A DNA stretch of 62,952 bases, the filler included, from Klebsormidium nitens (lineage: Eukaryota; Plantae; Klebsormidiophyceae), in the NCBI GenBank assembly GCA_000708835.1. It is 4 parts of 4 records of this genome, joined end to end, with 100 filler letters (N's around TTAATTAATTAA, not from the genome) between each part and the next. Parts side by side here need not be neighbours in the genome. Positions count along the whole stretch, not along the records: positions 30,591 to 41,684 come from DF238135.1; positions 41,785 to 59,864 come from DF237955.1; 2 more parts are not named here. One strand, given 5' to 3'. How positions within the stretch are numbered: the first letter of the stretch is position 1; every line of letters begins with the position of its first letter. The translations under genes and the position numbers were made by a program. The notes beneath the pieces are model-generated. The model saw only the letters and a list, made by a program, of their open reading frames with translations, ran no database searches and was not told where the DNA came from. Below, in pieces: positions 32,271 to 53,221 of the stretch.

Positions 32271-32603
32271 CGCTTAGAAGATGCAGTAGTCTACGATCAT
32301 GAGATCGAAGTATTGTTAAAGCATGCAGCAATGCATCTATTGCTCAAACCAATCGGTTCCGGCCAATGACAGTCATTTCTCAAGCTTACTCCTCAAGACA
32401 AATCCTAACGTACATCTAGAGGGTACATCTGCAGACGTGCAATAGCATTGCTAGGTTCAAACGTCTATGCCGCGATGAGCCACTGCGAATATAATCTTGT
32501 ACGTGACCGTGGCTACATGCATTGATGTCGACCGTGTATCGATCGTGCATCAATGCATGCTTGTAAGCAATCATTCCCGTCGCATGTGCCGGTGCCCGGA
32601 TGG

Positions 32604-33037: not shown

Positions 33038-33308
33038 TCAATCCAAGCAAAGCTTTTGGCCAACATTGTTGACAACATCATCACATGGAAATCATTGAAT
33101 GCAATCGTGGTTGTTGAGCCATGAAAAAACATGTACCATCAATATACATTGGCGAATTTCAACAAGTGCAGATCATAGTTCCAAAAAGCATGCACACAAA
33201 TGTTCCCAATGTGACTAGAAGAACGTGAAGCTCGTCGGGAGTCTGAATTGCATTGATAGTCACCCTGTCATTACCATGTTTGTAAAACTGTGCAAACATC
33301 GAAGCGTA

Positions 33309-36300
33309 TCATATAGCGTAAGAGCACCTAATCCCCGGATAGTAGAATTGCCGAGGCGAATCGTTGTTCTTGGCCCTCTTGAATCCCTTTGTATCCATCC
33401 TTCTCCTCAACTCCTCATAGGAGATCCTCTTGGAGGAATACTGCCCATAGCAGGCTGCGAACTCAGCCTGCAGTGTCGACAAACCTTCCCCGACCTCGCA
33501 GTGTTGGTCGATGAACATCTGGAGTTTGTCCGCCTCCCGCAGGTACTCGTCCGTTGCATCCTTCACGGCTTTGGGGGGAGAACCAAGTCCCTCTGCACTG
33601 TCGTACCACTCCACCGAGCCGCGAGCTAACCAGGATAGAATCTGCCGACGCGACTCCTCTTCCTTCATGCGTTCCTTCAGGTGATTGTCTCTGAGGCGGT
33701 GGGTTACGTTCGTTGGGTCGAAAGCGTTTGCATCGACGTACGTGTTGGGAAACGGGATTGCTCGCAGTCGGCGCTCGACGTTGTCCTTGATCGCCGTTGC
33801 GCATATTGCAGGAGGGTAATTTGTCTGCACGAACGGTGTGTGCGTGACAGTGAACTCGACGTTGTTTGTGTGGAGGCACCGCGCCTTTGTTGTGCCGCTC
33901 CCTGTCATCGCCAGGACGATACCTAGATCCACCTGATCCTCTTCGGCCGTCTCGTCGGTGACGGCAAGCCGCACGCCCATCAGCTCGTAGATGTGGTTTG
34001 TAGGCGCATTCTTAGAGGAGGCCTTTTGGCCAGGAGCCGTGACGACCGCGTCCTTGGACATCGTGCCGTAGTAATCGCCTACCACAGCCTGCAGCATCTC
34101 CTTCAAGGCACCCTTTCCATTTCCTGCAGAAGGATCAATGAATAAGTTCAGGTCGAGGTATTACCAAGTGAGTGTTGGACCGGCTCCACCGGAGAGCAGC
34201 AGACATTCGTCCATGTGGCTTGAAACTCGACTTGTAAATTTTTGTCAATCGAAAGGCCAATATGCAGGACCACTGATTGGTCGAGTCCTTTGCCACACCG
34301 CCAAATCCTACACTCTCGCAATGCAGGAGCACGGTCCTCGATGTTAAGAGCAGATGCATCTGGAACTCCCTAGATTCGTACTTGCACAATTTTTCCAAGT
34401 CTTGGATCCGAGACCAGAAAAGTCGGAGAATTACCTCCCGCTCCAAGCAAGAGCACAAAGATGTCCTCCCGAGTGTGGCCATTGATGGCGTAGCCAAACA
34501 GCTTCCGTACGTAGTCGACAAGCTCGGCGTCATGGTTGAAGATGTTGCCTATAAAGGCATCCATGCGCGGAGTGGGATAATTTGTCCCCTGCAAGAATGA
34601 TAGGCACACCTGAAAGATTGAATGGATCAACTCTTTGCCTTGTTAAGCGCAAGAGGAATGGCATCATAGCACGTCTTCAAGCAATCAGAGGTTTTGCACA
34701 CTTGTGCCAGGACGGGATTATATGACTCAAAAGCCTTTAGAAGACTCAATGGCAAAAGCATGCGTGCAGATGGCGTGCTCGGATTCTTGTGAAGATAAGC
34801 AATGGAAAAAAAAAGCGTGCAATCTCCATGAACGGTCCGCCAGCTTTCGTAACGTGTTACCTAGTCAATGAAGCGAGTTGCTCAATTTTCCATGGAGCAG
34901 CATGAGGCGGCGGGCTTACCATGAAGTCCGTCTCCGCGAACTTGGAGCACATGTACTACTGGGGCCGGTGCACATCGAGCTCGCCGGTCCTCAGGAGGAG
35001 CACTCCGTTTTTCACGTTCAAGATGTCTGGATCTGCATCCAGCTGCTTGGTAAAGTCGAAATCAACCAACTCCCCACGGAGAAGTTCCAGCGTACTCGTG
35101 ATCTCCCGGCTGTTGTTGTAGGTGCGCAGGCGCCTCAGCTGCTGCATCAGCGCCTCTTGCTCTTTTTCGTCACTGGTCGTCTCAACAGATGCCTTCCACC
35201 CGTCTCTCACTCTCTCACTCGCGCATAGACGATCCTGAGCTGGTTGATAGGCACGTTCTTCACATAGAAAGCGCTCTTCTCGTCGCGAATGAAACGCGTT
35301 TCGTTCCAATACCACCAGCTTTCTCTATCGAAACGCAGCCTGCGGAAGGGCAAATACTTGGCATAAGTGCTAATGAAGTAACGTGTTGATTCACACCAAT
35401 CTCGACCGACGTTCTCAAAGCGTCTTTTATCTTGCGTTGAACAGTGTCAAAAACGGCTCTGATCGGCAGTAAAGCATTTCCAGCAGAGCAAAGCACGATG
35501 ATGATGTCAGCAATGGGCGACCACGAAAAGTTGGTCACAGAGCTTAGACATTTGGACGCGCCCAAACAGGCCCACGTTCTGATGACGTCAGCAATGGATG
35601 ACAACGAAAAGTTGGACACAGAGCTTGGACACTTGGACACGCCAAGACAGGCCCACGTTCTGATGACGTCAGCAATGGACGACAACAAAAAGTTGGACAC
35701 TGAGCTTGGACACTTGGACACGCCAAGACAGGCCCGCGTTCTGATGACGTCAGCAGCTTTGAGAGCTGGTCAATCCAAGATCTGACGAGTATTTTCCGCA
35801 ACTCTTGACATTATCGCAGAAGCTGCTGCTCAAAACCTTTGGTTACCTGTAACGCTTCAAGCAACCAAAAACACGATTCACCGCTGACAGATTTTTCAGA
35901 GCCTCCGACCTACTGGGAACACTCCCGGGACATTCCCACCTGCCGCAGCTTGCATACATCTCAGCGACAATCTTGATGCCGCCGACGTCTCCCTCAAAGG
36001 CCCAGGCGTCTACAAATCTCTTGTGCAGACTGTTGATCGCGCTAACGTCATCAGCACTGAAAGCCCGAGTCTCGCCCCCAGACATCGCCTCCGAGCGCGT
36101 AAGCTCTCCAATCTTGAGCAGGGGGCGGACCCCATGGCACTCCGAGCTGTTGCAGCAATAGAGCAGGTTCTTCTTGCGCACGAGCACGGAAAAATTGTTG
36201 GAACTGTCGTGGTGATTACCGTACGGGCAGCGTCAAGGGCCAGCCACTCGAAAGACGTACATTGGCCCGCTGTCGCCCATCTTGAGGCGATCAAAACGGG

Positions 36301-37715
36301 AGGCGGCCCGTGTCGCCCGTGGCAGCCACACAGGCCTTGACGCGCTCCAGAACCGCTGCTGGGGGAGTCAGCCGAGGGTCTTTGATTGGACGAGGAGGTC
36401 CAAACAGTACAGCCTGCGGCTCACTGCATAAAAGCGGGGCGCTCTGTTGTTGAAATCCTGGAAAACTGGATTGTAGTTGCTAGCACTTTGAATGACCGGA
36501 TCCGAAGTAGACTTTGTGAATAGAGAGACAGAGCCCCCCGAGTCTTTAGCAGAAGCCCGATCGGACAGTGAGCTTGAAAGCCATCAAACGGACCAGATTT
36601 ATCAATCTGAGAAGCATGGCATGCGTGCCACCGGTCGCTAGTGCACAGGGTCTAGTGGCCATCATCGATTAATACCCTACAAGTAGAGGCAAGCAAGCCT
36701 TGGACCGCAACAATCATTAAGATACTTTTAGCAGCTTAAAGACGTTTCAACGGTCTTGCTAACACTCCCAAATCTATAGAAGCGTGGAGAGGTCGGAAAA
36801 ATGATGCTTTTCAATCGCCTTCGCTGACGTAACTTCTCAAAGACACCAAAAGGTGCGCTGAAGCTTGGACAACACAGACATGCCCAGTCAAAACCAAATG
36901 CCGAACCAATTGAACTCAAATGGATTGCGTTACACTCTTCTACTCGTATCAAATATCTACCGGATGCAGAAAAGATAAAGTCAAAGACGACTTCAAGGCC
37001 ACGTATGGAGCACTGAGTAGTACATACCGGGCCCCATCACCATCCCAAGGCACCCGCCCACGGCCGCTTGGCGCTTCGCCGCTGTCGTTCAAGATGCGAC
37101 TGAGCCAGTCGGGCGCGGCTCGGAGATTGGAGCGGTTGGGCAGAATCTCGTGGTCCCACTTGTAGCAGCGCAGCGTGCCGTCGAGGCCCGTGTAGCTGCT
37201 AGGTGCGGTGTACAGCATTCCCCGCCTTCCACGGACATCAATGCCCACCGCTTTGCCCTTGTACCGAATCTTTGCCTTGTTGGCAAGTTGCACAGGCCGG
37301 CCTTCTCGGACAGAGACAGAGAAAAGAGGATGTGCAGTCCTCCATTTCCTTGGAGGACTCGCGGCGTGTCCTCCAAAAACCCTCCATGCTCTTCGAGCAT
37401 TTGCTCGAGTGCTTCGAAGCCCCCGTCCTTGACGTCAACATCGAGAGCATAGATGTCCGACTGCTCCGTGATAATGGCGATAGAGTTGCGCCCTGGCTTG
37501 GCAAACTCCTGGAGACAGTTGCCAAGGTTTGCCTCCTTCCAAGGCTTGGACTCGGAGCCCCAATTGCACGGCTGCTTCCGGACTTGACCGTTTGGAAACT
37601 GCTTTTCGAGAAGGTCGTGGGTGACTGTCACAACGCCAAGGCTGTGGAAATGATGAGCGGCGGCCAGGACGGAGTCGATCGCCAGTACAGGAGCTTCGAT
37701 AGATGGGCTCAGTCC
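33309..37715 (-). pseudogene. Primase-helicase copy 1: Prim-Pol + Zn ribbon + D5_N + SF3 helicase + wHTH; at least 3 spliceosomal introns; inactivated
   Basis: Prim-Pol motifs YALDVDVKD, GLHILF, GIDVRG; Zn motif RCPYGNHHDSSNNF..LLYCCNSSEC; introns 35340-35846, 34589-34919, 34124-34434 restore RYR|LRFDRESWWYW, DFM|GTNYP and Walker A GAG|GNGKG; Walker B LAVTDE; motif C QTNYPP; ERRL. Lesions: frameshift ~37280, TGA at 36233-36235, frameshift ~35210, TAG at 34956-34958. Confidence 0.9.
35499..35756. repeat. 81-bp tandem array (3 units + partial), inverted relative of the 32.6-kb array, inside the 35340-35846 intron
   Basis: tgatgacgtcagcaat...gaaaagttgg...cttggacacttggacac at 35499, 35580, 35661, 35742; reverse complement matches the 32694-33037 unit core. 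Confidence 0.9.
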
Positions 37716-37802
37716 CTGGAGGGAGAAAAGATGGATTTTTTAGATCAGCCTGCTCTTGATCTTGAAAGGCACTCAAGCATGCCCCACTATTGGAAGAAAA
37801 GG

Positions 37803-38043
37803 TGATGTCAGCAAAAAGTTTCCACCCAAGAGTTTGGCAAAAGCTTGGACACGTGGACACCTGTTGTATCGAGCCTCGACTCCGAGGGTCCGTGTCGAAA
37901 GCACAGGAACGCCGAAGCGTTTAGCAGATGTATGGACCGTCCAGTTGGTCGGACTGTGCAGAAGAGTCGTTGAGGAACTGGAGTGATGACGTCAGCAAAG
38001 AAAATCCCCTCCAAAAGTTTAGTAAAAGCTTGGACATGTGGAC
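37803..38043. repeat. Two further diverged copies of the same motif between divergent primase and YR-like genes
   Basis: gatgtcagcaaa...aaagcttggacacgtggacac (~37803-37860) and tgatgacgtcagcaaa...aaagcttggacatgtggacag (~37983-38043), each followed by tgtatcgagcct. Confidence 0.7.
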
Positions 38044-38318
38044 AGTGTATCGAGCCTAGGTTGTCTTATGGAGAAAGTGACGGAAGCATGAAAAAACTGA
38101 GGCGGATATCTGAACTGTCCTGACTTTATTGACGTGTCGTCAAGAAACTGGTGCACTTTTCTCCAACAAATGCCGCTGCCGATAGCATTTTTCAAGATAT
38201 AAATGTTGTGCGACTTTTCCTTGTCATTATTTTATGACATCAACGGTTGATATAAATAGGTCTGCACGTCTGGTCATGTGAAAATTATTGTCGAAGCTCT
38301 ACTATATGATCAATAAGT

Positions 38319-39149
38319 ATGGATGCCTTGCGTCAGCTGTTCACCGACAACATTCGAACTCAGGCATCCGTTGATCAATACGTAAGGGGCATTGCCCGTA
38401 TCTATCAATTGTGCCATGATCGACAACTATCCAATACAGATGATTTAAGCTTTTTGGAAACAGACGCACACGTTTTCACTCAGCTCGTGCATGATCGATA
38501 TGCAAATCCTGGATCAAGAAGGACCCGATTGGCCCCTTTTCTTGCCGCTTGTAAAAAGCTCGGAAACTCAGAAGCTTATCAGATTTATTTACAGCCCTTT
38601 CAGAAGGATAATCAGCCGTTGAAAGAACTTCGTGAGGAACAAGCCGCTGAATCGGGGCATGACCCTATGAAACAACTCGAGATGTCACGTGAAGACATTG
38701 ATCTTTTGGGTAGCAAGCTTGCCTGAAAGGTCCGATCTTTGTCACACGTTGTTGCAGACGACCTCGACAGAAAGGATGTGAAAACCATAATGATACATTT
38801 GCTCGTTGAATGGCATCTTCTGATAAAAAAGCACGTCAGACGAGGTGTGAAGATCTATCATTTACCTATCATTCTCAAGAGGAGTGGAGGCCAGCACGAT
38901 GACACCGAAGATGCACTGATCCAGACAAGTCGGTCAAATAACACGATTTGTTTACTGAAACAACAAGAGTTGTACGAGCTTCCAACAATGTTTTGTAAGT
39001 ACCTTGCTAGAACGTTAGAGCTCATCCCTCGAGACTTTTTTATAACCTCAGTGTCTGATCCGCTAACACCAATGTCAGGGAGCAATTACAGCAATTTCTG
39101 CGGTAAGCTTCTTTTCAACGGAAAGTCACTCAATCTTGAACGCATCTAA
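38319..39149 (+). pseudogene. Degenerate or truncated tyrosine-recombinase paralogue
   Basis: ORFs 38319-38726 and 38739-39149 are in the same frame, separated by one TGA. N-terminus (SVDQYVRGIARIY...DDLSFL...LAPFLAACKKL) aligns with both intact YRs (TVEQYCARVMRLF...DSLDWV...LSPLLVIARKL). C-terminal LLRH/MGH/Y motifs absent. Confidence 0.65.
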
Positions 39150-39228
39150 CTAGACTTGTTTTCTAGCCGAAAAATAAATCTAACGATAAGTTTAGCTGAA
39201 GGACTCCGGCTGCGAAGCTACAAGAAAG

Positions 39229-40332
39229 ATGGCCACACGGGTAGTTCACATCGAGGGGCCACACAATCAGAGGAAGGCATCGCCATCGCAGTTACCAAAA
39301 CTAAGGAGCATCCTCAAGGTTAAAGATGGTCGTGATGGTTCAGAGGCAACTTTACGGGCCGACTCTACCGTGAATGTATACCTCCGCCAGATCCTAAACA
39401 TATACACAATTCTTAACCCAAACCAGCAACTAGATGACGATGTGTCTATAGATTGGATAAAAGATTATGGAACCGTGATAAATGCGATCGAAAGTTTGTT
39501 AGACAGAAAAGGAAAACCCATCAAATCGCTTACAAAAAGTTCTTATGCGGCACCATTTTCAATCCTTGCTCAGAAGAAGGGCTTCGAGGACGCACAACGA
39601 GCGTACGGTGATTTCATTGAAGCAAAAAAGCCTACCGAGGTCGAGCTGGATGAAACAATGCAACGCAAGACACCAAAGGAGCTTGAAATGTGGGTGCCTT
39701 GGAAAGAAATGATCAAGGTAAGAGACAACCTTGATCAGATTATCACACGAACAATCATTGAAAAATTTAGAAATGGTCGTGCATTGACGCGTAGCGATAA
39801 AGAACTCGTTAACGACCATTTGATCCTAAGCTTGTACACAATGCCTCTCGGGCCCCTACGGAACGAGTTTGGGAGTTGTCGAATTCTCATAAAGGAGGAA
39901 ACTGAAGAATTTGAAGCAAAACCTGGTGACATCAATACATGTATTCTAACAAAGGATCTTGAGCATTGCCAATTTGTTATCAGCAGCCACAAGACACTCA
40001 ACAAGGTGGGCATACGGAGATTGCACATTCCTGAAAATCTAGTCAATGTCATTCTTCGAAGCTCTAATCTCTTTCCAAGATACTACTTGGTCATGAAACA
40101 TTACTATCTTGGCTTTAAAGATGAACCAATCAATAATTTTACCATTGTACTGAACGATTTGGGTCAACGTCACTTTGATAAGAATCTATCGTGCACGTTG
40201 CTCCGTCATATTTCGCATACAGAGCTCACACCCAATTTGGGTTCCCGAGGGGAGGTACGAAAAAAGTGTGAATGGATGGGGCACTCGCTTTCAACGGCAC
40301 TCAATCATTACGAGCGGCGGTGGTCACGTTGA
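39229..40332 (+). CDS. Tyrosine recombinase (PLV/virophage/NCLDV-type)
   Basis: 367 aa; catalytic-type motifs PLRNEF (R), SHKT (K), LLRHI (R), MGHS (H), NHY (Y) in the correct order. Confidence 0.9.
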   Translation: MATRVVHIEGPHNQRKASPSQLPKLRSILKVKDGRDGSEATLRADSTVNVYLRQILNIYTILNPNQQLDDDVSIDWIKDYGTVINAIESLLDRKGKPIKSLTKSSYAAPFSILAQKKGFEDAQRAYGDFIEAKKPTEVELDETMQRKTPKELEMWVPWKEMIKVRDNLDQIITRTIIEKFRNGRALTRSDKELVNDHLILSLYTMPLGPLRNEFGSCRILIKEETEEFEAKPGDINTCILTKDLEHCQFVISSHKTLNKVGIRRLHIPENLVNVILRSSNLFPRYYLVMKHYYLGFKDEPINNFTIVLNDLGQRHFDKNLSCTLLRHISHTELTPNLGSRGEVRKKCEWMGHSLSTALNHYERRWSR

Positions 40333-40416
40333 TCCGCACTTGATATACAGGTGCGCGTTTTTTATCAAAAACAATTTCTTTCTCTGGAAGTAACGGTAGT
40401 GTCGTTGCCGTGCACC

Positions 40417-40650
40417 ATGACTGGCAATCACGACCACTCAGGCTCCACTTTGTGTGCAGCATGCTTGGAATCTGCAAACTATAAGGAGGAACAACAAGCC
40501 AAAAGCAGGACCTATGCACACGCATATTATGATTCTAACAAAGAGCGAATACTGCTCAAGAAAGCTCTTGAACGAATGGAGAAGGGTGTTCGAGTCAACA
40601 GACGTACTATGGAACGTTTACACGAGGCAAAGATCTACATTGCTGTCTAA
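40417..40650 (+). CDS. Small His/Cys + basic-helix protein, copy 1 (77 aa from ATG 40417)
   Basis: HDH..TLCAAC...AYYDSNKERILLKKALERMEKG..NRRTMERLHEA; homologous to 46616-46939. Confidence 0.75.
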   Translation: MTGNHDHSGSTLCAACLESANYKEEQQAKSRTYAHAYYDSNKERILLKKALERMEKGVRVNRRTMERLHEAKIYIAV

Positions 40651-40806
40651 GCATCGTAAGTCACCCTATTTAGATCGTGTAACAAACATCTCAACATATC
40701 CTTCCAGCACTCATATGGAGATGTACCATGTTGTGCCACTCTCCCTCTGAGATGCCAGCAGCTTGTGGATTGTGGACCTGTCGATCGAGTGTCGTGTTGA
40801 AGTGTT

Positions 40807-41683
40807 ATGATGCTTCGTGCATACAATGAAAACCATTTGGAAATCTTGAGAGGGTTGTTGTTCATAGGCGCGCCGTGGACTTCGGATGGCTTAGGGCGCG
40901 TTTCAATACCAAGAAATTTTTCTAGAATAGAAAATATTGCACAGTGGCCGGAGATGGAACTGTTGAAAATATTCGAGGAGTACGCTAACGAAGGCCTGTA
41001 TGCTATTCCGGCAAAGGCTTTACTAGGGCAAGATGGGTGTAGTAAGAGGGTACTCGGAACTATGCCACATGCGAACGGGGGCACAGCTATACGGTCAGCT
41101 TCCGATTGGAATGCTTCAAAGAAGAGAATGAAGGAATACGTACACGAAAAACAGTTCAATTCTATCGCAATCAAGACTGGCTGTATATCGGATGTATACG
41201 TTCTGGATATTGATGTCAAGGACAAAGAGGACGAAGACGTATCGGCTGGAATGCCGTTTTGGAAGAGCTTGATTGACAAACATGGAGAGCCAAACACGTT
41301 AAAAGCAACTACTCCTCGTGGCGGATTTCATTACTACTTCTCGTTTTCGAGCATCCTCAAAGATGGTCTCAAGTCCGGTAAGAACTTTGTGGGTGTAGAT
41401 GTGAATGGTCAAGTCTATGGAATTGATGGTCGTGGTGAAGGGGGAATTGCGTTTGCTCCACCGAGCTCGCTTGGCAATGGAAAAGAATACAAATGGAATG
41501 TCACACCGAAAAGGACCAATATTGCAACCGCTCCAGCATGGGTGATTGAACTCATAAATACTTCTGCTAGACGAGTTGGTCGTAACGGACAGATAGACAT
41601 ACATGACGCATCCCGAATAGTGCGTTGTTTAGAGCTCAATGAGCAGGACGAGTCGTTTCTACACACCGCTTTTGCAGACGAAG
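40807..41683 (+). CDS. Prim-Pol (bifunctional primase/polymerase) N-terminal domain, truncated by a gap
   Basis: YVLDIDVKD, TPRGGFHYYF, GIDGRGEGGIAFAPPS, YKW...APAWV; closely parallels the N-terminus of 43650-46511. Confidence 0.9.
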
Positions 41684-41784
41684 GNNNNNNNNNNNNNNNN
41701 NNNNNNNNNNNNNNNNNNNNNNNNNNNNTTAATTAATTAANNNNNNNNNNNNNNNNNNNNNNNNNNNNNNNNNNNNNNNNNNNN

Positions 41785-42895
41785 CCAGCCGTACGCGGCC
41801 CTCCTTCACGCGCTCCTCATCCCGCGCTACTCGTGGGTGTTTGGTCATGTGGTGACGCTGAGGTTGCTTCGCCACCTGCTGCTGGAGGGGCCACTCGACG
41901 AGCGAGGGATGGCGTATCTCTCTAACGACGGCCCCATGCTGGCGGCCATTTTGCGTCTTCACCCCGTGGCAGGGGGGGTGTACGCCTTCCCGCCAATGTT
42001 GCGCCCCCTCATTCGCGACATTTACGCCGTGAACCTCCTCTGCTTCGAGCCGAGCGGGAACCGGCCCCGCTCCTCCTCTTGTTCGCCTTTGGCGGCTCTC
42101 CATGATGCCACCGAGCACTTGTGGACGATCGAGGGCGAGAAGCTGAGGCTCGTGGGCCAGCTGGACGCGGCGGCCATGGAGTACGCGGAGCGGCATGGGG
42201 CGGCGCTAAAGCGGGCTGCCAACTCGCTCATGTTCGAGCTCGAGGTTCGCGAGCCCGAGTGCTATGGGGTGGGGGGCTTCCTCTCGGCGCCGTCGGCAAC
42301 TTATGCCAAGCGGGTCGCAGCCGTCTCGTCGTACGATTTCCACCCTTTGCTGTACGGGCGGCCACGGTTCGTTGATTGGGAGGATGAGGCGGGCCGTGGC
42401 AAAAAGGGATCGGAGGAGCGGCTCACTCAACACTGTAGCGCCCCAAATCCACGGTCGTCCAAGGGCCGTGCGGGGGTCTTCATTGCTTGCTGCCAGGACC
42501 GAGCCCCTTTTGGCTACCATTGGCTCAAGGGGGGCGAGTCGGTGTCGGACTTAGGGACCGTTTTGCTCACGAGGTTCCCGTTTCGGACGCTGCGGGGGCT
42601 CACAATTGTGGAGGATGCCGCGTGTAATGGCCAAGAGTGGTTTTTGAATCGGGTGCCGCAGCTGGCCAAGTTCATGCTGTTTGCCGTCGATCGCTTCCAC
42701 TCGGGGCCCGTGAGTTGCGCTCCATCGGGGGCAAAGCGCTACGCGACGCACACGTGCGCCCCAACCCTTTTTATCGATTCCTTTCCACAACATCGCCAGA
42801 CGATCACGACAGCTTCGGAGGGCATCAACTCGGGGTTGAAGAGATGCGCGGTTAGCCTTCAGCAGATCACGAGTATTAAGCGGCTGCTGAGCTGA
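41785..42895 (+). mobile_element. KDZ (Kyakuja-Dileera-Zisupton) transposase fragment
   Basis: GVFIACC...GYHWLKGGES...LLTRFP...IVEDAACN...LNRVP...FAVDRFH...C...ASEGINSGL matches my recollection of the KDZ core; 5' part in the gap; ends at a TGA beyond which the frame continues. Confidence 0.75.
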
Positions 42896-43340
42896 GTCAC
42901 GACCATCCTCGATACTCTCTTTGAGCGATCAAAGTACGCAGTTTTCTGGAGCCAAGATAGCAATCCTTTGAGGGAATTGATCAAGAGGGGGCGTTCAAGT
43001 TGAGGGCGTTGCCAATATAGATTAATTGCCACGATCCAACAAGGAGAGTAGCGCGCTTTGTGAAGAGCAATAGCAATTACAGCAGGCGGGTGCGTGTGGA
43101 CTGTTGAAATTCCAAAAAGGCTGTTGATTGGGCTAAGATGACACTTTGTTGTATCGATTGCATGATTCGCTACTGATACAACATCGATACACAAATCTAG
43201 GGCGTGTATCATATCAAGAGAGTACACAATTGGTCTTTCAATGACTTCAAAATCGTTCAAAATGCTTGAAAGTGGTGCCTCAAGGAAGCATGTGCGGTGT
43301 GAGTGCGCGGAAAAAGTGTCAAGAGTATGAGAATCTGGTC

Positions 43341-43466
43341 TGATACAATTGATACAGCTGATACACATAATCCCCACATGCTCCTCTCTATATAGCAATA
43401 TTGTTTTTTTTTGTTGTTAAAGAAAATCTGTATAATATGCTAGTGTATCTTGTATCATCTGTATCA
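43341..43466. promoter_or_regulatory. Putative replication origin: inverted iteron triplets flanking an AT-rich core
   Basis: TGATACA at 43341, 43350, 43359 (9-bp period); 78-bp spacer with a T-tract and AT-rich run; TGTATC(T/A) at 43444, 43451, 43460; two more TGTATCA at 43637 and 43646. Confidence 0.6.
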
Positions 43467-43649
43467 CCCCCAAACGGCGCATCACACTCCACGGCCGCCT
43501 TGTTGCACGTTTTTGAGCCCTCATTGAGGCAAATCAACACCCAGCTTAAGATTTAAAAGTCGGAAAAACATCACAATCAGATCATAAAGTGGAGATTTTG
43601 ACGCTGATTCACGTCCGTTCGAAATGGCGAAATTCTTGTATCAAGTGTA

Positions 43650-46511
43650 TCAGGTCCCTTTGCGGACCTTCCCCTGCGCATCCGTCTGTTTCAATTCCTC
43701 CTCGGTCTTCAAACGGATCCCAAAGAAGCCTCTTCCTCGTTTCCTACCATCGAGCGTCCTGATCATCGGGTTGTTTCCCCCACCCGGCGGCTTTTGCGAG
43801 AATCCCTTCAAGCACATCGCTCTTGCCAATCCGTCACCCGCCAACTTTACGTCGTGTCCGCCCGCATACAAGAAGTTCGTGAAAGCCTCAACAAAATCGG
43901 ACTTGGCAACACTTAAACCCGCGCCCTCAGTCATGCAAGCCTTGTCGTTCTCCTCCGTATACTCCTTTGCCGCCGCGCTAAACTCTTGAGGGACCGGCGA
44001 AAGAACCTTCAAGGCCGGAGCCAATGCCTTTTTGGCGTAGTACATGGTCGCTCCCTGAACGCAAAAGTCGAGGGTGTCTGCTGCACCTGCGTCTGATTCA
44101 AAGTAGGGCTTGAGAGTCAAATCAATTGGTTTGTGATATTTGTTGGTTGCATCAAGCTCGTCGGGATTTTTGAACGTGTAATTGAACATGATGAGCACGA
44201 TCCGGCAAATCAGTGCGCTATCGTCACTTGGAAAGTGTGGTCGAAAGTTGGTGAACAAACAGAGCTTGTACTGAGGCACGTAGCTTTGCGGCTTGCAAAA
44301 TAGCTCGCGCGCATCTAGCTCACCACCGCCGCTTGCCTCCTTCACAAAGGACGCGTGCAACTCTTCGACCCCTTCTGATTCGTCGTTTGTAACAAACCTC
44401 TTTGTTCGGATCTGCATGAGGTGAGTCGATGCAGCAGAAGCATTGGCCTTGAAGGTAGGTTTGATAAAAATGGCCTTATTACCGGCGCAATTGTAGCTTC
44501 CAAAGGCCTTTCGAAGCGCTTGTTTCAACACCCCTTTTCCATTCGCTCCGCTTAAGCCATTGGCAATGACAAAAAGCTCCTCAGACGTCTCACCGGTAAG
44601 ACAATATCCAAGAAACATTTGAAGCCAATCAATCGCCTCCGGTGGAAGAACTTCCATCAGAAACGACCGAAATCTCGCAGTGGGCCACGTGGAAGCGCCC
44701 GAGATATACTCACTCGTCTGATTATTGCAGAGATTGTGAGGATGGTGGGGCAGGAGCTTGCCCGTTCTTAGGTCGATCAACCCATTCGGTGCATTTGCAA
44801 CCGCGCGATCTTGATCGAATTGGTCGAGCAATCCCTCAACACGCAACTCGGTGACCACAGACTGCATACACTTGCGAACGTCGGAAGGGTCCTGGACGTT
44901 GATCTTTCCAAAGCTGGGCATGATCTTGTCGAGCTCCTTCGTGCATGCCTCCGTGGCCATCTTGATCTTCTTCATCTGCTTGGGATTGACCTCTTCACGG
45001 TCGAGACGCTTAAAGACACCGCCAACAACAAAGCCCTCTAATTCAGAACGGCTTGCATACAAAGTGCCCAAACATCTCTCTCGTTGCCGCTCGTACCACG
45101 CCAAGAGACAGCCCATCTGACTTGTGAACACGCCCGCAACCAAGTTGAAGGTGTCATGCACCCATGATGTGCCGCTCCACACATAGAAGAGCGGGCCTCG
45201 GCTCTTTGAATCTGCCTCATTGGTGGTCACGAGGATTCGACCCTCGATCATATACAGATAGGCAAAGAGACGCCCCAAGTTGGCATATGCCTCTGGAGCC
45301 GCATGCTCAACGACGATTCGAAGGAGCAAATCTTGAACCTCTTGGCTTCCTCTTGTGTATTGGGTGATTGTATGCATGTCGTCGTGAGGGTCGACCGGCT
45401 CTGTGGTGGCATCTTGCAAAGCCGCCTTCAAATTCTCCAGGACCCCCAACTTTTTGGGCGGCTTATGGGAGCAATCGACGCCATGACAACGATAGTACAC
45501 GTTGCGCCCCCTCTTGAGCAGGTTGAAATTGTTGCTCCCTGAGTGTTGATGACCAAGAAAGCACCTTCGAGGCCCATAAGTTCGATAGCAATAGTAAGTG
45601 CCGTAGAGGCCATGTGACAACGAGCTCGCGTACGTACTCGTCGAGTCGCCGGCCTTCTTTAACATCTTTGATAGCTCCTCCAATAGAAGCTCTTTGCCGT
45701 GTGGCGAATACGTGTCTGAGATTGTGCCAGTTATCTCAAAAGTAGGACTTTTGGCACCTCCAGGCTGAGATGCCTCGGCGCTTGCTCCCGAAATTCTGTC
45801 AGTTGTTTCCTTTCCCCCCTCGCTCGTGATTGCAGGTTGGCCAGCATGATTGTTGACCAATTTCGCTAGCCAAAATGGCATTTCCTGGCACGCTTCATAG
45901 CTAGGAGGTCCATTGATCCACTCATATGTTGCAAGCTCGCCGTGGGCCTTTAGATAGCTTGTCGGTGGAGCGAATATGACCCCCCCCAATCCTCTTCCAT
46001 CGATGCCAAAGGTCTGCTTGTCAACCTTTACACCTGAAAAGTTCTGTTTCCACGTGAGATGAGGCGAGTCGAGCTTGAAGTACAAGTGCAATCCATGAGA
46101 ACCGGTCCTCGCTTTGAGTGTCTCTGGCTCTCCATGGATCCTAACAAGTTGCTCCCAGAGCTCGATCCCCGGTCGCTTCTCGTCCTTTGCAACTACGTCG
46201 ATATCAACCACGTACACTCTACTAACTCCCGCAAGTATTGCAAGCCCGGTTGCATCTCGCTTTTCCTTCATCATAGGATTGATGGACCGCTCCCATGCTT
46301 CCGGTGTTTTGATGTGTGCATAGCTGTGAGGGAAGTCACCCTTCTTCTTGCTCTTATCTTCATCCCACGAGACAGAGACGGGAAGCGCATATAGGCCATT
46401 ATTGGCAAGTCGTTGGATCTCGTCTCTGATACATCGAGTCCCACGGGCCTTGGGGTCTTTTGGGGCCGAGGCCATAGAGCTGGGAGCTTGGACAGCTGTT
46501 TGCGTGGCCAT
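43650..46511 (-). CDS. Primase-helicase copy 2, uninterrupted and intronless (953 aa): Prim-Pol-ZnR-D5_N-SF3-wHTH
   Basis: YVVDIDV, GLHLYF, GIDGRG; RRCFLGHQHSGSNNF...YYRCHGVDC; NAPNGLIDLRTGKLLPH; Walker A GLSGANGKG; Walker B FVTNDE; ASGGGELDARELF; LFTNFRP. Confidence 0.95.
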   Translation of the reverse strand: MATQTAVQAPSSMASAPKDPKARGTRCIRDEIQRLANNGLYALPVSVSWDEDKSKKKGDFPHSYAHIKTPEAWERSINPMMKEKRDATGLAILAGVSRVYVVDIDVVAKDEKRPGIELWEQLVRIHGEPETLKARTGSHGLHLYFKLDSPHLTWKQNFSGVKVDKQTFGIDGRGLGGVIFAPPTSYLKAHGELATYEWINGPPSYEACQEMPFWLAKLVNNHAGQPAITSEGGKETTDRISGASAEASQPGGAKSPTFEITGTISDTYSPHGKELLLEELSKMLKKAGDSTSTYASSLSHGLYGTYYCYRTYGPRRCFLGHQHSGSNNFNLLKRGRNVYYRCHGVDCSHKPPKKLGVLENLKAALQDATTEPVDPHDDMHTITQYTRGSQEVQDLLLRIVVEHAAPEAYANLGRLFAYLYMIEGRILVTTNEADSKSRGPLFYVWSGTSWVHDTFNLVAGVFTSQMGCLLAWYERQRERCLGTLYASRSELEGFVVGGVFKRLDREEVNPKQMKKIKMATEACTKELDKIMPSFGKINVQDPSDVRKCMQSVVTELRVEGLLDQFDQDRAVANAPNGLIDLRTGKLLPHHPHNLCNNQTSEYISGASTWPTARFRSFLMEVLPPEAIDWLQMFLGYCLTGETSEELFVIANGLSGANGKGVLKQALRKAFGSYNCAGNKAIFIKPTFKANASAASTHLMQIRTKRFVTNDESEGVEELHASFVKEASGGGELDARELFCKPQSYVPQYKLCLFTNFRPHFPSDDSALICRIVLIMFNYTFKNPDELDATNKYHKPIDLTLKPYFESDAGAADTLDFCVQGATMYYAKKALAPALKVLSPVPQEFSAAAKEYTEENDKACMTEGAGLSVAKSDFVEAFTNFLYAGGHDVKLAGDGLARAMCLKGFSQKPPGGGNNPMIRTLDGRKRGRGFFGIRLKTEEELKQTDAQGKVRKGT

Positions 46512-46615
46512 GATGTCTGTACTCTAGTCAGGAAATAATGGGGCTGATTGAAACGCGCTTCACTGCCAACTGCGTTCTCATACTACTTATTTCCGAATCC
46601 TAGTCATAGGGCATC

Positions 46616-46939
46616 ATGGTCCAAAGCACGTATTCCTCGAGTGATATTAAGATCCATCCATGTCATTGCCGTGTCTGCGAAACAAGCCGCGCGTACCAAA
46701 AAGAGCACCATGAGCAACACGCGCAAAACGTTCGCAGGTACTATGGTCGGAATCGAGAGAACATTCTGCTTCAAAAGGCTTACAAACGATTTCTTTCGGG
46801 CACCACAAAGAAACTCCACAAAACAACGGCTCAGCGACTGATTGATGCTGGCTATAAGGTGCCGCAAAATACATGTTTCTCCAAAGAACCCACGGGCCTT
46901 TCATTGGGCGCCTTCACAAGCTGCATCGAAGTGTCTTAA
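46616..46939 (+). CDS. Small His/Cys + basic-helix protein, copy 2
   Basis: HPCHCRVC...RRYYGRNRENILLQKAYKRFLSG..LHKTTAQRLIDA; homologous to 40417-40650. Confidence 0.75.
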   Translation: MVQSTYSSSDIKIHPCHCRVCETSRAYQKEHHEQHAQNVRRYYGRNRENILLQKAYKRFLSGTTKKLHKTTAQRLIDAGYKVPQNTCFSKEPTGLSLGAFTSCIEVS

Positions 46940-46963
46940 GAGGCCGCCAAGTGGTGAGGTTGC

Positions 46964-48016
46964 TCAAAATTGGATGCGACTTCCATCGGGTTTGTACTTA
47001 AGCTCATAGTGGCGCATCGCGATCGGTGCCGTGTGCAACATCGACTTGGCAAGCTCATCTCTCTCATGGAGGCTTGGCGCATCCTTCATTGCATTACTCA
47101 CAGTAATTTTTCGAAGGAGGCACGATCCCAAATTTGAGTCGGGATAAATGGCTGCTAAGAACTTCGTCAGGTACCCTGACCCCATTGGGGCGTCTGGTGT
47201 CCTCATTCGGCTTAGAAGGTACTTTCGTGGGAAAATAGTGAGACTTTCCGCAATCACATTGCAAAGCCGGGTTGGTATGTCAAGAACTTGTGGGCCGTGT
47301 GTCTTGTCCGTCTTGTAAGAGTTGAGATGAAGCCTATAGGTGCCCTTTGCATACTCTAGAAGGTAGTTGCGAGATCCGGACATCAACTCACGTGCGGCAG
47401 CGCTCCCAACCTCTTCGAAGCGCACGATGGGAAGATCGCTCCAATCATTACGAATTGCTGGCATTTGAGTGTACAAACAAAGGACAAGGTATCGGCAAAG
47501 CGTTACCTTGTCCGCAACAGTGACCTCTTCTGGCCTCTTTGGCACAATGGATCGATTGATCTTCCGTTGAAGCTCGACGCGGCGGTGGTTGATTTCGTCA
47601 AGCGTTTTCCAATTCTTGGCTTCCCGTTCTGACATGTGTTGGGCAGGCCGAGCATCCTCCATGGCCTTTCGAACGGCTGTGTATCTCTTGAAGAGTGCCT
47701 CGTAGGTTCGTTGATCACTAGGCCACAATTTTCGAGCAATAACGAGAAGCGGACTTAGGCTCGTAGCTTGAGTTGGTAGCTTGTCGGAGTACACGGTATC
47801 CAGATACTCGATGATCTTGGTCGTATCCTTCACCCAGTCGAGAGAGTCGAAATCCTCCTTTGGAGCATATATGCTCTTGAATAGACGCATCACGCGAGCG
47901 CAATATTGCTCGACAGTGTAAGGTTTTCGCGTCGAATCATCAAACACGTCATGGAGCAGCTGTTCGCCTGATATTGGGGTCCTTATAACCTTTGTGTTTG
48001 CATCTAAAGCATCCAT
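46964..48016 (-). CDS. Tyrosine recombinase (PLV/virophage/NCLDV-type)
   Basis: 350 aa; AIRNDW (R), SYKTDKTHG (K), LLRKI (R), MLHT (H), RHY (Y). Confidence 0.9.
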   Translation of the reverse strand: MDALDANTKVIRTPISGEQLLHDVFDDSTRKPYTVEQYCARVMRLFKSIYAPKEDFDSLDWVKDTTKIIEYLDTVYSDKLPTQATSLSPLLVIARKLWPSDQRTYEALFKRYTAVRKAMEDARPAQHMSEREAKNWKTLDEINHRRVELQRKINRSIVPKRPEEVTVADKVTLCRYLVLCLYTQMPAIRNDWSDLPIVRFEEVGSAAARELMSGSRNYLLEYAKGTYRLHLNSYKTDKTHGPQVLDIPTRLCNVIAESLTIFPRKYLLSRMRTPDAPMGSGYLTKFLAAIYPDSNLGSCLLRKITVSNAMKDAPSLHERDELAKSMLHTAPIAMRHYELKYKPDGSRIQF

Positions 48017-48280
48017 GCCGTATGTATCTAGATACCGAGAAATTAAAGATGCACGGCCGATGACCGCAAGAGGCTCAGATACCGAATATGCGTGTTCATC
48101 TTGCTTTCCACCGTTTTAATGCGCGTAGAAGCTTTTCATGGTTATCTGACGCGGAGAAGCTCCTAAAACCCGACATGGGGGCCTTATCACTTTTCTAGTA
48201 TCGGCCGATAACCGACTTTTGCCAGATACACGAATATGAGTGTACATAATCTCCAAAACGGTGCTTTTAAAGAGATTCAA

Positions 48281-48871
48281 TTATCTTGGAGAGAGATCTT
48301 TCGGAGACTCGTGGGCGAGACGAGCCTTGTTGGGATTTGCAAGCGACTCTAGCTCCAAGATGGGAGCATCACTCCATACCACGCTGGGCGAATAACGGAA
48401 AGATGATGGAGAGCAGGCGTTGAAACTCGCGGGACCAAACGGAGAAATCTCTTCTTGTTCGCGCAATGTGTTTTTCTGCCGTGGCTCGGTCGATCGCAAC
48501 TTGCGCGCTCGACGCCGAGCTTGGGACGCGTTCTTGAGGGCAATTCTCCAGCTCACTTTGACAGCGTAGGGGCCATTGATGTTCGACTTGTCCCAAAAAG
48601 CATGAAAGCCTTCGGCAACTAACGATCGAACCAGTGATCTGGTGATGTGACGAAGATCAAACGGTTCTGCCAAGGCACGAATGCCTCCAAGCGCAGCTAC
48701 GTCGAGCACGGTTTCGAGTAATCCAAACTCTTGGTAAGATCTGACAATTGCGGATCTAGCGGATTCCAACACTTGTCTGTCCATCTGCTGGATAGCAAAC
48801 TGGGATTGTGGCCGAAACCCGAGGATCGCATCCATTCTAAAGCCTAGATTACGTTCGATAAAAGTTGCCAC
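48281..48871 (-). CDS. Hypothetical protein upstream of the second YR
   Basis: 196-aa ORF with an ATG start, co-oriented with the YR; globular-looking N-terminal ~110 aa ending LVAEGF...YAVKVSW; no family recognised. Confidence 0.45.
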   Translation of the reverse strand: MATFIERNLGFRMDAILGFRPQSQFAIQQMDRQVLESARSAIVRSYQEFGLLETVLDVAALGGIRALAEPFDLRHITRSLVRSLVAEGFHAFWDKSNINGPYAVKVSWRIALKNASQARRRARKLRSTEPRQKNTLREQEEISPFGPASFNACSPSSFRYSPSVVWSDAPILELESLANPNKARLAHESPKDLSPR

Positions 48872-49019
48872 AAAATGACCAAGACTCTCTAATCAATGTC
48901 CCAATTCATGTGCCGCTTGTAGCGGCCTTCGAGTTGAACCTTCGTTCCAAGACATGGACTGATCCCCCCATGCTTGACCCCCCATGCCCTTTGTGTCCTA
49001 GTCCGGCCGCTTTTCAATT

Positions 49020-49635
49020 GACCATACCACGTAACATGTTTGAATATTGTAACTCATGGAGCGATTCGACAGGAGGACAGGACGGACAGGAGATTCTCGT
49101 GTCCGTGTCCCGTCTTATGCAAGTTACACCATACTAAAGGATATTCGAACATTGTGACTTATGAGGCGAATCGACATGTGGACAGGACGGACATGAGATC
49201 TTTCCGTGTCCGAGTCCCGTCTTACGCAAGTTACACCATATCTCCTAACATGTTCGAACATTGTGATTTATTGGGCGAATTGACAGCTGGACAAGACGGA
49301 CAGGAGATTGTCCTGTCCGTTGTCCCTCATTTATGTGACAGGTAGGGGCGTACCTTAGATACATACATATTCGCAAGCTCGGCCGAAATCCGGAAAAGTT
49401 CGTATTATATCTGTTATAATTTCTTTCTTCTCCGGGGAAGGGATAATAACAAATACGCAGTATAGAGTTCTCCTTGTGGGATCCAAATGCCAATATGTAT
49501 GTATGCAAGACCATACCCCGAAAAGTTGCAATATTGATGATCGACTTTTTGGAGACGAAAATATAACGGATTAGTAGTACGGAGTTTTCGTTGTGGGATC
49601 CACATGCCAATATGTATGTATGCAAGGCAATACCA
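49020..49635. repeat. Long direct repeat, copy A (3 x ~110-bp GACAGGA units plus an AT-rich block)
   Basis: Colinear with 58870-59610; shared blocks include accttagatacatacatattcgcaagctcgg and accataccccgaaaagttgcaatattg. Confidence 0.9.
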
Positions 49636-49752
49636 AAACAAATGCAACGTCTGCGGAGAACAATGATGATCCTAGTCAAATCTCACATAGTGCTATCAAT
49701 TCTAGTCGATCCTTCCAGGCTATATGCAAGTCAATGATTCCTCTCCTACTCC

Positions 49753-52700
49753 TTATTCCATCTTAACCTCTACCAACTTGAGCGCAAGGCCCTTATACCC
49801 TCGCTCCGTTATGCCGCAATACTTTACGCCGAGGCCAAGTTTGCTTGGCTTGTCCGAACCCGAGAAGCCGTGGTTGTTCATCGCCGACTTCAGGGACTTG
49901 GTGTCGAGCGAGGGGATATGGCCAACGCACTTGCTGCCCACCATCCTCTGCGGGTCGTTGTACGCCTTGAGGGCATCGCTCGTCGAGATGAAGAGGTCAT
50001 CGCCCTTGACGCAGCTGTTTTGGACGAAGTTGTCGAAGTCGTCGGCGGCCTCTTCGTAGTCCTGCAGGGCGTCCATGCTCCGCATCGGCATGGGGTACAG
50101 CTGCTGCCCGTTCTGGTACCACTTGACCGCTCCTGCGACCAGCCAAGCCCGCAACTCCTGCATGTTCTGCAAGGTGCTCAGCTTGGTGAGAAGTCGCGTG
50201 TCCACCAGCCCGTGCAGCGGGTTGGCCGGGTCGTACCCCTTCTCGTGGGGCGAGAAGTAGCGCCGCACGAAGCAAACCAGCTGAAGACGGCGCCGGAGGG
50301 CGACGGACCAGGTCTTGTCCGTCCGCGGGAGGTAGTTCGTGCAGATGATGAGCTGCAAAAAAGGTTCGAGAAGGGCGCAATCAGAATTTTGTTGGCTCAT
50401 TCCCACGAATTCGAGCATGCCACGTGCTCAAGCCAACAGATTCGAGCATGCCACGTGAGATCAAGCCCTCTTGCTGCTGACAAGAGATCGTATCATGTTG
50501 CTGCCGGATCGAAGTCATTCAATTGCAAGAGTTCGATCGCAATCCATAAGTTGGCCTCACCAGAACGGTCGAAGTGAAGGTGACGTAGTCCCGGAACAAA
50601 GGCCGAGCGGTGATGACGTCGCCGCCGGTGAGCTTCTTCATGCCGGCCTCGTTCAGCGAATCCGACCTCTCGGTCTCTTCGACCGCCGCAAGTAGCGCTC
50701 CGGCAAGCCCTGCACAAAAAGCAGAGATCTTCCGGTCAAAACACTGATGCCAATTCACGCACATTGGGCAGCCCCGAAGACAGGATCGACAGGACGAGAA
50801 TCTGCTGGCGGACAAATTTTGCATTTCCTGCCACATTCGATGAGGAACGAGGTAAAATGCTCAGGACATTGAAGTTTGCAGGACGATCCGACGGGATCGA
50901 CAAGACAGACACGAGAATCTGCCGTCAGACAAACTGTCATGCATCCCTAAGCAAATAAGATGCATCATCATTTTAAGTTTTGGGAGAGAGAGGGAGTTCT
51001 GGTGAAGTCTCACCTGCTTCGAGCGGCGAAGCGGCCCCCTTGTGGGCGGCTCGCTGCCCTTTTGAGCTCACCAAAATCTCCTTGCCAACATCCTTGAAGG
51101 CGGCGCCGAGGAGCTTGCGCAGCAGCGCGAGAAGCAGGCTCTTGCCCGCGCTGCCCTCGCCAACAAAGATCGGCAGTACCTGAGAAAGATCACGAGAGAC
51201 TTTACAAGGCTGCAGATGCTCGGCGGCCACCTTCCACGAAAGTCGTCTGCTGTGACCATCACCACAGAACGGGGAAGCGCCAAGACCTTCGACTGAATGG
51301 CTGGCAATTGATGGGCCGAAGATTCGCGATCCTCCACAGCTAAGTCTTAAAACGGCCTCATGCGGTCGTAGGGTCCTTGACGATTGAAGCAGCACGTAAT
51401 CACTCAAGTCCGTCGAACCTTTGAGCTCACGAGTAAGCATTTTAAAAACTGGTAGTACGAATCCAGTGCTACCTACAAGTTACTTCTGTAACTAAAGCAG
51501 AGTTGGTTGATAGCAGCACCTGCCTGATTGCTTGTGTGACCGGTCAGCCCGTACCCGAGCAGCACCTGGAGGTGCTCCAAAGCGGCCGGCCCATCCTCTC
51601 CGGAAACGTGCATGATGTCCTCCAAGAAGCGCACCATCTCGCTCCTTGGAACCAACGATCCAGCGCGAGGGTACGCCCAGTCGATCACCCGAGTGTTCAT
51701 GAACTGCGAACTGTTTTCGACCTGACTCCGGTGGACTTGGCCAATGCCTCCATAAACACAAACTTTCTGCCGAAGTCCCTTAACTGATCTGCGTTTTTTT
51801 GCACACGGGCACAGATCCATCCCTCACCCGAGGGTGATGCGGAAGCAGCTCGCCGGTCCGCAAGGTCGATGACGCCGTTCGCCACGGCCAAGAAGTCCTT
51901 CTGCACGTCCAACAGGGACTGGAAGCCGGGCTGATAGAAGTAGTCCTTGCACGTTCCGATGATGTTGGACATCTTCGCGTTGAAGTTGACGTTGATCAGC
52001 CTCTCCTCCCTCTCCGTCTTACGCTTCTTCCCGCCACCTGCCGGCTTCGACTTGATCGCACCCCATCCCCCGTCCTCGTCCCCTCTCGATCCGTCTGCCA
52101 CAGCGATCGAGACCCCTCCTCCCCCCCCCTCCTTTGCCTCGCGTATGTACTCGGCCTCGATCTTGGAGAGCTCCTCGCGGAGCACTCGCAGGATGCGGCC
52201 GCCGCTCTCGTCCTTCGCCCAGCTCCGACCAGTCCAGTAGTACGAGCCGGAGGAGGTGAAGGCGAACTTGAGGCCCGTCCGGACGTAGAGGCGCTCCAGG
52301 ATGACGGCGCCACCCACGTCTCCTGCAGATATGGGGAGATCGCATTAGGAGGGAGTGCAGATACGACCGAGATGAAAGTGCTTCCTAGAAGTTAGCGCCT
52401 CATTCAAGGGCCCCAAAACGGGTTTGCAGGGGCGAGAAGGCAGATGGTAAGCAATTCATTCCAAGACTGCGCGGTTGTACGCCCAGTCGTTGCTTCTGAG
52501 CTAGTCTGGCTCTCAAGATCGACGACCGTAGGCATCATGCAGATACGAACGAGAAAAAGTGTCTCTTTTAACTTCTCACATTTACAAAAAGGTGAAAAAC
52601 GGGTCTGCAGACTCCGTCAAAACGCAATGAAAAACAGGAGACTGAAATCCAAATCGCAGTTGTAGGACAGGCCTTAGAGCTGCTTCTCAAAGGAGGTCTC

Positions 52701-53221
52701 GGGAGGCAACATTCGAAGCTCACCTTTCCTAATATTCAGATTCTCTCGCAGAAACGGCAGCGGCAGCAGCTGCCGGTCGGAGTAGAGGTGGTTCCGCTCG
52801 CTGTTGAGCGGCTGACTGTCGCCGAAGGCCGCGGCGATCGGCAGGGGGAGAACGCCTAGGCTGATGTTGCCTGACTGCGCGGTGGCCTCGCAGCTCTCTG
52901 CGTAGCACACGTACGTCACCTCGACCCCCTGCCGAAGGAGCCCAAAGGCGTCGCTGCCGTGCACGCCCTCGCACGTCGCGGCGAAGTAGGGGCACGTCAC
53001 GCGCCCGCCAGGCGCGTTCCGGAACTCGTAGATGACCCCTATGCCCGTCGAGGACGGCTTGGCGCCGCAGAAGACCGAGGTGCTGTCGCCCCAGGTCGAG
53101 AGCAGCTTCTCGAGCTCGCGCACCACCTCGGTCTGGAGCTCAACGTTCGCCAGATCCGGCTCTCTGGTAGCACGGGACACCTCGGGGCTCCCCAGCTTGC
53201 AGGACCGGTGTGCCGCCGCCT
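49753..53221 (-). pseudogene. Helicase copy 3: ZnR-D5_N-SF3-wHTH with at least 5 introns; one frameshift; no Prim-Pol exon found upstream
   Basis: Introns 52323-52723, 51704-51827, 51180-51523 (GC-AG), 50710-51013 and 50353-50560 join KG|DVGGA, HHPR|FMN, TSNQ|VLPIFVGEGSAGKS (Walker A), EAG|LAGALLAAVEE (Walker B) and TVL|LIICTN; ALRRRL; +1 frameshift near 51862 (IDL/RTGELLPHH). Confidence 0.9.

Follow-up and report, generated by a model that had tools for sequence, protein, structure and literature searches.

Polinton-like viruses can carry an end module in which a primase-helicase gene lies between a tyrosine recombinase gene and repeats proposed as a replication origin, and repeat-flanked helicases also occur among them, as with the direct repeats around the Gezel-14T module (Barth et al., PMC11296320). 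Comparisons with this and the other publications cited extend to the parts of them considered here. In bacterial phage satellites of the SaPI type, the pri-rep-ori unit consists of a superfamily 3 (SF3) primase-helicase with a C-terminal winged helix, followed from the gene end onwards by iterons of 5-6 nt that oppose each other across an AT-rich stretch (10.64898/2026.10.17.759575). The window analysed here, a 62,952-nucleotide stretch (filler included) from the alga Klebsormidium nitens, contains three primase-helicase genes (copies 1, 2 and 3) and the start of a fourth. Copy 2 resembles both systems, as it lies between a recombinase-like gene and an origin-like site and its putative winged-helix end is followed by opposed hexamers beginning at the end of the gene. 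Unlike the viral module, the locus belongs to an algal nuclear genome, shows no capsid module, combines a PF09250 primase-polymerase (Prim-Pol) domain with a zinc-finger-like one, and offers a resolved iteron-type site together with two lineages that have spliceosomal introns. The SaPI units, in contrast, are bacterial and intronless, and iteron binding has been shown for them, whereas it is predicted here.

Virus-derived genes with host-spliced introns, as found here, have been described in the punuivirus, where 61 of 506 genes have 2.5 introns on average (10.64898/2026.10.09.758095), and in mirusviruses (PMC12768974). Those are whole giant-virus genomes, whereas the present case concerns a small replicon gene whose introns number as many as 12, in a graded series within one genome. 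Introns also interrupt integrated Polinton-like elements of dinoflagellates (PMC12166617); the introners there form transposon families, in contrast to the short motifs and 1-5-nt boundary repeats seen here. Inserts of nucleocytoplasmic large DNA viruses (NCLDV) in K. flaccidum/nitens show that viral DNA was integrated many times into this same genome, and the contigs presented in the parts of that report considered here carry polymerase, capsid, ATPase and VLTF3 genes, with no description of the present family (PMC5294986). Viral-origin genes of K. nitens are enriched for methylation (PMC12344493), and endogenous viral genes have been stated to have no introns (PMC10120064). No description of the family, of its introns or of an iteron origin in Polinton-like elements turned up in the literature searched, a scope that leaves aside subscription papers and supplements; these genes may be listed in Figures S3/S5 of PMC5294986, in Table S13 of PMC11296320 (green-algal hits) or among the PMC10120064 datasets. 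That endogenous viruses gain introns is already known, and an origin-bearing graded series was not found in that literature. We regard it as moderately probable that these genes are virus-derived replicons of which two lineages gained introns independently and afterwards multiplied, introns included, as DNA.

The window is made of K. nitens scaffolds strung together by artificial linkers (N44-TTAATTAATTAA-N44, at 30491-30590, 41685-41784 and 59865-59964) that are not genome sequence, so that gene order across them is meaningless. Copy 1 (scaffold part 30591-41684) is therefore unlinked to copies 2 and 3, the only true neighbours (both on part 41785-59864), and a physical cluster of all three was ruled out.

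Copy 2 (43650..46511, minus strand; KFL_010060020, 99% match) is an uninterrupted, stop-free open reading frame (ORF) of 953 aa, as an earlier sequence-only reading of this DNA had it. A separate intron in this gene was rejected, the annotated 862-aa model leaving out sequence that is open frame. Its domains follow in the order Prim-Pol, zinc-finger-like, D5_N, SF3 helicase and winged-helix-like; Prim-Pol and D5_N exceed the Pfam cut-off, PHROG primases are also matched, and the nearest solved folds are D5/C962R primase-helicases. The putative zinc-finger label refers to a Cys/His pattern that is invariant at C317, H323, C342 and C347 in 14 aligned proteins, and an Atlas search with this region gave only scores <0.9. 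The C-terminal end, modelled as beta-alpha-alpha-alpha-beta with a predicted local distance difference test score (pLDDT) of about 55-72, may be a winged helix. Primase, D5_N, SF3 ATPase motifs and this putative end are the features of D5/P4-type SF3 primase-helicases; among the D5-type lineages, lineage 3 is the exception, Prim-Pol being missing. The family has at least 22 annotated members in K. nitens. Copies 1, 2 and 3 are mutually 25-26% identical and share 82-88% with their own relatives; by these identities they are old sublineages of a D5-type family and not recent paralogues, so that the term paralogues, used in the earlier reading, is not supported in the sense of close duplicates at one locus. 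Copy 2 has a 7-aa deletion near residue 853 and Cys in place of a near-invariant Arg (769). Scans for related loci of lineage 2, lineage 3 and two environmental relatives found nothing. Residues 1-50 of KFL_008160040 (P0032) hold a C-x2-C...FG...C-x2-H motif without Pfam match, which we presume to be akin to the cysteine repeats of large DNA viruses.

Copy 3 (49753..57201, minus strand) lacks the Prim-Pol domain and is transcribed and spliced from 13 exons. The five introns first proposed stand as those of the helicase part, and seven upstream bring the total to 12, reaching up to the ATG at 57201. Introns 1-4 (57030-56143, 55936-55768, 55645-55252 and 55067-54784) and 5-7 (54648-54430, 54366-54065 and 53933-53220) appear as CT..AC joints in one contig whose listed pieces show 0 differences from the locus, in all four runs, which come from four studies. 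The helicase part holds introns 8-10 (52723-52323, 51827-51704 and 51523-51180, the last with GC-AG ends) and 11-12 (51013-50710 and 50560-50353). Introns 8, 10, 11 and 12 are joined in 4/4 runs and intron 9 in 1/4, with net skips of 401, 344, 304, 208 and, for intron 9, 125 nt; relatives' contigs supply the joints of introns 8, 9 and 11, and those of 10 and 12 may stem from this or a related copy, which makes 12/12 introns joined in own or relatives' contigs. Contigs from the locus itself also keep introns 9, 10 and 11 unspliced. Two frame breaks lie at introns 2 and 6, and a third, near 51862, is present in the RNA contigs too. Introns 4-6, with shared motifs of 28-55 nt, and their exons are alike, suggesting tandem duplication of an exon-intron unit. 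Long low-complexity N-terminal exons mark the lineage. Intron 1 (56143-57030) has a dispersed repeat of its own, GGTGCAGATTGTCAGG-like, in several copies and unrelated to the flanking arrays.

Copy 1 (33309..37724, minus strand), a Prim-Pol/D5 gene without the N-terminal extension of its relatives, has four introns (37027-36424, 35939-35340, 34919-34589 and 34434-34124) that agree with relatives' mRNAs. At least three had been predicted, a bound that holds, the extra one being 36424-37027. Those at 34589-34919 and at 34124-34434, the latter splitting Walker A as proposed, are GT-AG and, again as proposed, in phase. The third prediction, 35340-35846, is a real intron with a misplaced donor, now set at 35939 because three relatives align up to that position and because the 596 nt in the mRNA of a relative compare with an expected 607 for 35939 and 700 for 35846; the donor at 35846 was rejected. 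All four segments are missing from relatives' mRNAs, two with exact net length, and the net skips are 604 nt at intron 1 and 311 nt at intron 4; the junctions are crossed by relatives' contigs only, with no own-locus joint. As the N-termini of relatives are longer by 200-360 residues, copy 1 probably had a fifth intron and has probably lost exons upstream. An acceptor-like site, CTCCCTCCAG, lies at 37716, at the start of copy 1. Correct phase had been claimed throughout, and splicing nonetheless leaves the frame broken, with 2 stops (36235, 34958) and 3 frameshifts (near 37290, 36307 and 35212) in copy 1 and 3 frame breaks in copy 3. The local copies 1 and 3 are pseudogenes, broken by stops or frameshifts. 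In the runs examined, there were no contigs on the recombinases described below, copy 2 was almost without contigs (one bin, depth 0.5, one run) and copy 1 had no long own-locus contig, none of which is taken as silence.

Each of the 16 introns in copies 1 and 3 ends in GT-AG or, in one case, GC-AG, and RNA joints in copy 3 and in relatives of copy 1 bear out their spliceosomal nature. The case that could have undone this view, namely insertions acquired after inactivation, was excluded, as the introns are spliced and canonical. An introner origin was likewise ruled out by the absence of full-length similar introns within the window: a check for introners and miniature inverted-repeat transposable elements, advised by the sequence-only reading, found only motifs of 28-55 nt shared among the 16, whose boundary repeats measure 1-5 nt.

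No intron position is common to copies 1 and 3 in the alignable region, as had been noted, the nearest offsets being 11, 12 and 17 residues. The annotated gene models of relatives are interrupted at matching junctions (KFL_002130220, introns 3 and 4; KFL_008050040, intron 2; KFL_011920010, intron 10), and junctions common within a lineage suggest that its introns were gained before it spread, and that it therefore spread as DNA. In a tree of 56 rows (25 of the 35 members of a first-pass clade and 31 others, picked from 167), the three copies fall into separate, strongly supported clades; the radiation around them, which also contains environmental proteins about 800 aa long, is unresolved. The environmental relatives are presumably intronless, judging by their single long predictions, some sources of which may be RNA, and the split of the three sublineages may predate entry into K. 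nitens. Independent gain in lineages 1 and 3, as first proposed, is likely, given the unshared positions, by parsimony rather than from a resolved tree. The reverse history, an intron-rich ancestor with reciprocal loss and a processed (reverse-transcribed) derivative in copy 2's lineage, could draw on the unresolved backbone and on reverse-transcriptase sequence in the genome. It would, however, require all 8 alignable introns to be lost reciprocally, the recombinase cassette and stop-overlapping origin-like site of copy 2 are not expected of a processed mRNA, and on either side of the tree the relatives consist of one long ORF each; we consider this history very improbable.

Directly behind copy 2, the origin-like site (43146..43651, minus strand) comprises five GATACA hexamers, the first overlapping the stop codon, a 78-nt spacer (70% AT, in the top 0.2% for AT), three TGTATC and four further copies. 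GATACA pairs number 6 against 0.02 expected, every one at 43175-43651, and copy 2 alone has the SaPI-type layout of opposed 5-6-nt iterons with an AT-rich spacer behind the gene. An origin score of 10 or more opposed hexamers was reached downstream of viral homologues at 8 of 79 loci, which represent 4 of 28 clusters, compared with 4 of 1712 control windows, and motifs at the positive viral loci often end in ACA. Copy 3 lies between two direct repeats of 640 bp that carry GGACA arrays, one downstream (48991..49632), with 105-109-bp tandem units, opposed GGACA/TGTCC and a palindromic block, and one upstream (58886..59610), 79% identical over 648 nt. On two scaffolds, of 10.8 and 11.5 kb, the first gene is a relative of copy 3, sizes close to that of the 10.6-kb copy-3 unit, which is only a hint. 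A 110-bp tandem repeat with 65-bp derivatives occupies 58237-58700, between the start of copy 3 and the upstream direct repeat.

Copy 1 has a downstream 71-bp tandem array (32607..33049) with TGTCCAAG pairs and TGACGTCA, a homologous 81-bp array of opposite orientation in intron 2 (35494..35755), and two weak repeat copies upstream of the gene (37801..38044), also opposite to the downstream array. GGACA pairs number 17 where 0.8 are expected, and 16 lie at copies 1 and 3. The palindrome TGACGTCA, present in every unit of the first two arrays, is presumably a bZIP-type site, and these units may draw host transcription factors. Own-lineage repeats occur in 5 of the 16 introns (copy-3 introns 4, 5, 6 and 11, copy-1 intron 2; 0-3 of 300 shuffles). 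Copy-3 intron 7 weakly matches the copy-1 repeat (1/300 shuffles), an unexplained cross-lineage match. As a candidate role, the repeats of each lineage likely serve as its replication origin.

Upstream of copy 2 lies a tyrosine-recombinase-like gene of Polinton-like-virus type (46964..48103, minus strand), with a small CxxC ORF (46610..46939, plus strand) in between. A second cassette of low GC (38310..41684, plus strand), ending at the scaffold edge, consists of a broken recombinase-like gene (38310-39149) in tandem with an intact one (39232-40332), a homologue of the small CxxC ORF (40333-40650) and the Prim-Pol start of copy 4 (ORF from 40801), whose remainder is cut off. The order recombinase, small CxxC gene, primase-helicase is found on two scaffolds (copy 2; copy 4 at 39232-41684), with the relative orientation of the small gene differing, and in the model KFL_001520110 a lineage-2 primase-helicase is joined to a recombinase of 57% identity; such a module is a feature of Polinton-like viruses. 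Both intact recombinase ORFs, without Pfam or PHROG match, show the R-K-xxR-H-Y residue pattern, which we take to be the catalytic motif of tyrosine recombinases. Their Atlas scores to Preplasmiviricota clusters are 0.97-0.98, with Phage_integrase on 16% of one cluster's members, and their motifs recur in genes on two viral contigs of 20-22 kb, of which one also has capsid and A32 matches. Single-sequence prediction gave no usable fold (pLDDT 37), and a recombinase profile found none beside 80 viral helicase loci.

The ORFs scanned on the 11- and 18-kb scaffolds gave no match to a capsid or packaging ATPase, although the scaffolds are short and such capsids often escape Pfam, as in L001, which gave no capsid match. 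No large NCLDV core-gene region was seen within these scaffolds, and no terminal inverted repeats of a 15-30-kb element appeared in self-comparison, the scaffolds being too short to exclude them. The copies could be fragments of larger latent viruses, Polinton-like or giant endogenous, with intron-bearing latency genes as reported for the punuivirus and capsid genes hidden by the shortness of the scaffolds. This would agree with the several giant-virus inserts of K. nitens (PMC5294986), with the giant-virus-like contigs that give the best viral helicase matches, and with the meeting of lineages 1 and 2 under one scaffold number and of 2 and 3 on the copy-2/3 scaffold; the missing capsid and packaging-ATPase matches, and PriCT-2 in place of the zinc-finger-like domain in the best viral matches, render it quite improbable.

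The GC content at third codon positions (GC3) climbs with intron number, from 0.44-0.59 in intronless genes (0.59 in the series with 0, 4 and 12 introns) to 0.70 in copy 1 and 0.84 in copy 3, and is 0.62-0.73 in four presumed host frames; CpG depletion is absent (ratios 0.92-1.07). Among the listed differences to expressed relatives, to which the test is confined (40/261; 21 coding sites among the 40 listed out of 402), 21/40 and 13/21 are synonymous, against 0.24 and 0.23 expected. Both results uphold the long nuclear residence argued from sequence; the reading as resident nuclear elements is thus supported in part, with the provisos that the two local intron-bearing copies are pseudogenes and that copy 2's lineage still looks virus-like. 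Lineages 1 and 3 might also be domesticated or passive host genes, long immobile, that gained introns as ordinary genes do, spread by segmental duplication in repeat-rich regions and perhaps bind or block incoming viral origins, the repeats being relic origins turned satellites. Host-like GC3, spliced transcripts, the low-complexity N-terminal exons and Prim-Pol loss of lineage 3, divergent single members on 108-365-kb scaffolds and a copy-3 unit without recombinase speak for such a fate. It sits poorly with the two 640-bp direct repeats bounding copy 3, several 82-88% identical relatives on 11-17-kb scaffolds, frequent pseudogenes and lineage-matched repeats, and is on balance not very likely.

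In the preferred account of virus-derived replicons with independent intron gain, the likely source of the family is the end module for replication and integration in Polinton-like viruses or giant DNA viruses. The winged-helix end of the helicase would bind the iterons of its own lineage, melt the AT-rich spacer and start replication of the unit, with primers from its own Prim-Pol domain (lineages 1 and 2) or from another primase (lineage 3, Prim-Pol lost). New copies would be inserted by the recombinase, which lineage 2 supplies in cis and the others use in trans, or alternatively through recombination between flanking direct repeats. Lineage 2 would retain the virus-like state, and lineages 1 and 3 would have turned into RNA polymerase II genes. 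The three copies in the window are probably decaying, relatives elsewhere carrying the function.

Several observations weigh against this account. The units of copies 1 and 3 contain no recombinase, and their repeats are tandem arrays in other layouts, with no clean single origin and origin scores of 5-9 against 11 for copy 2, while an unrelated palindromic region near 1600-2400 scores 13 and 57 of 79 viral homologues stay below 6 opposed hexamers. The backbone of the tree is unresolved, and a sister relationship of lineages 1 and 3 survives the approximately unbiased test (p-AU 0.36). The sharing of introns and flanks by relatives is inferred, the RNA status of the four runs is presumed, and the synonymous excess concerns listed differences only. 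No empty site or target duplication was seen, and replication, binding, excision and insertion were not observed.

A bolder proposal sees in lineages 1 and 3 nuclear DNA elements that have no capsid and replicate themselves, a type so far undescribed in eukaryotes; taken jointly, its parts make an unlikely whole. A spliced, host-transcribed D5 helicase would recognise its own iteron arrays, including those in introns, and a repeat-bounded unit of 5-11 kb would be copied, with a recombinase borrowed from virus-like lineage 2 and, for lineage 3, a primase borrowed from it as well. Some introns would derive from, or have been colonised by, the element's own origin repeats.

Elsewhere in the window, a ~250-nt imperfect palindrome (1906-2152) adjoins a 56-bp tandem repeat, and two presumed host genes encode an alpha-helical repeat-like protein (6042-11763, minus strand) and a long coiled-coil with very large exons (19956-29022, plus strand). 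An expressed multi-copy sequence (31403-31863; contig depth 40-370, 0-18 differences, 4/4 runs), a ~180-aa ORF without Pfam or PHROG match between the copy-3 repeat and the recombinase (48281-48892, minus strand), and a fragment resembling a non-long-terminal-repeat retrotransposon, with a weak RVT_1 match (59965-62103), were also observed.

If the preferred account is true, a culturable model alga holds one virus replication gene in three states, from cassette to 12-intron gene, each with its own candidate origin, and the origin of new introns becomes directly testable. Intron-blind predictors in surveys of endogenous viruses would overlook such lineages (cf. PMC10120064, as far as the parts considered go). 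The way in which Polinton-like elements without a protein-primed polymerase start replication would become testable as well, and the system would show whether an intron-rich gene can remain a mobile replicon.

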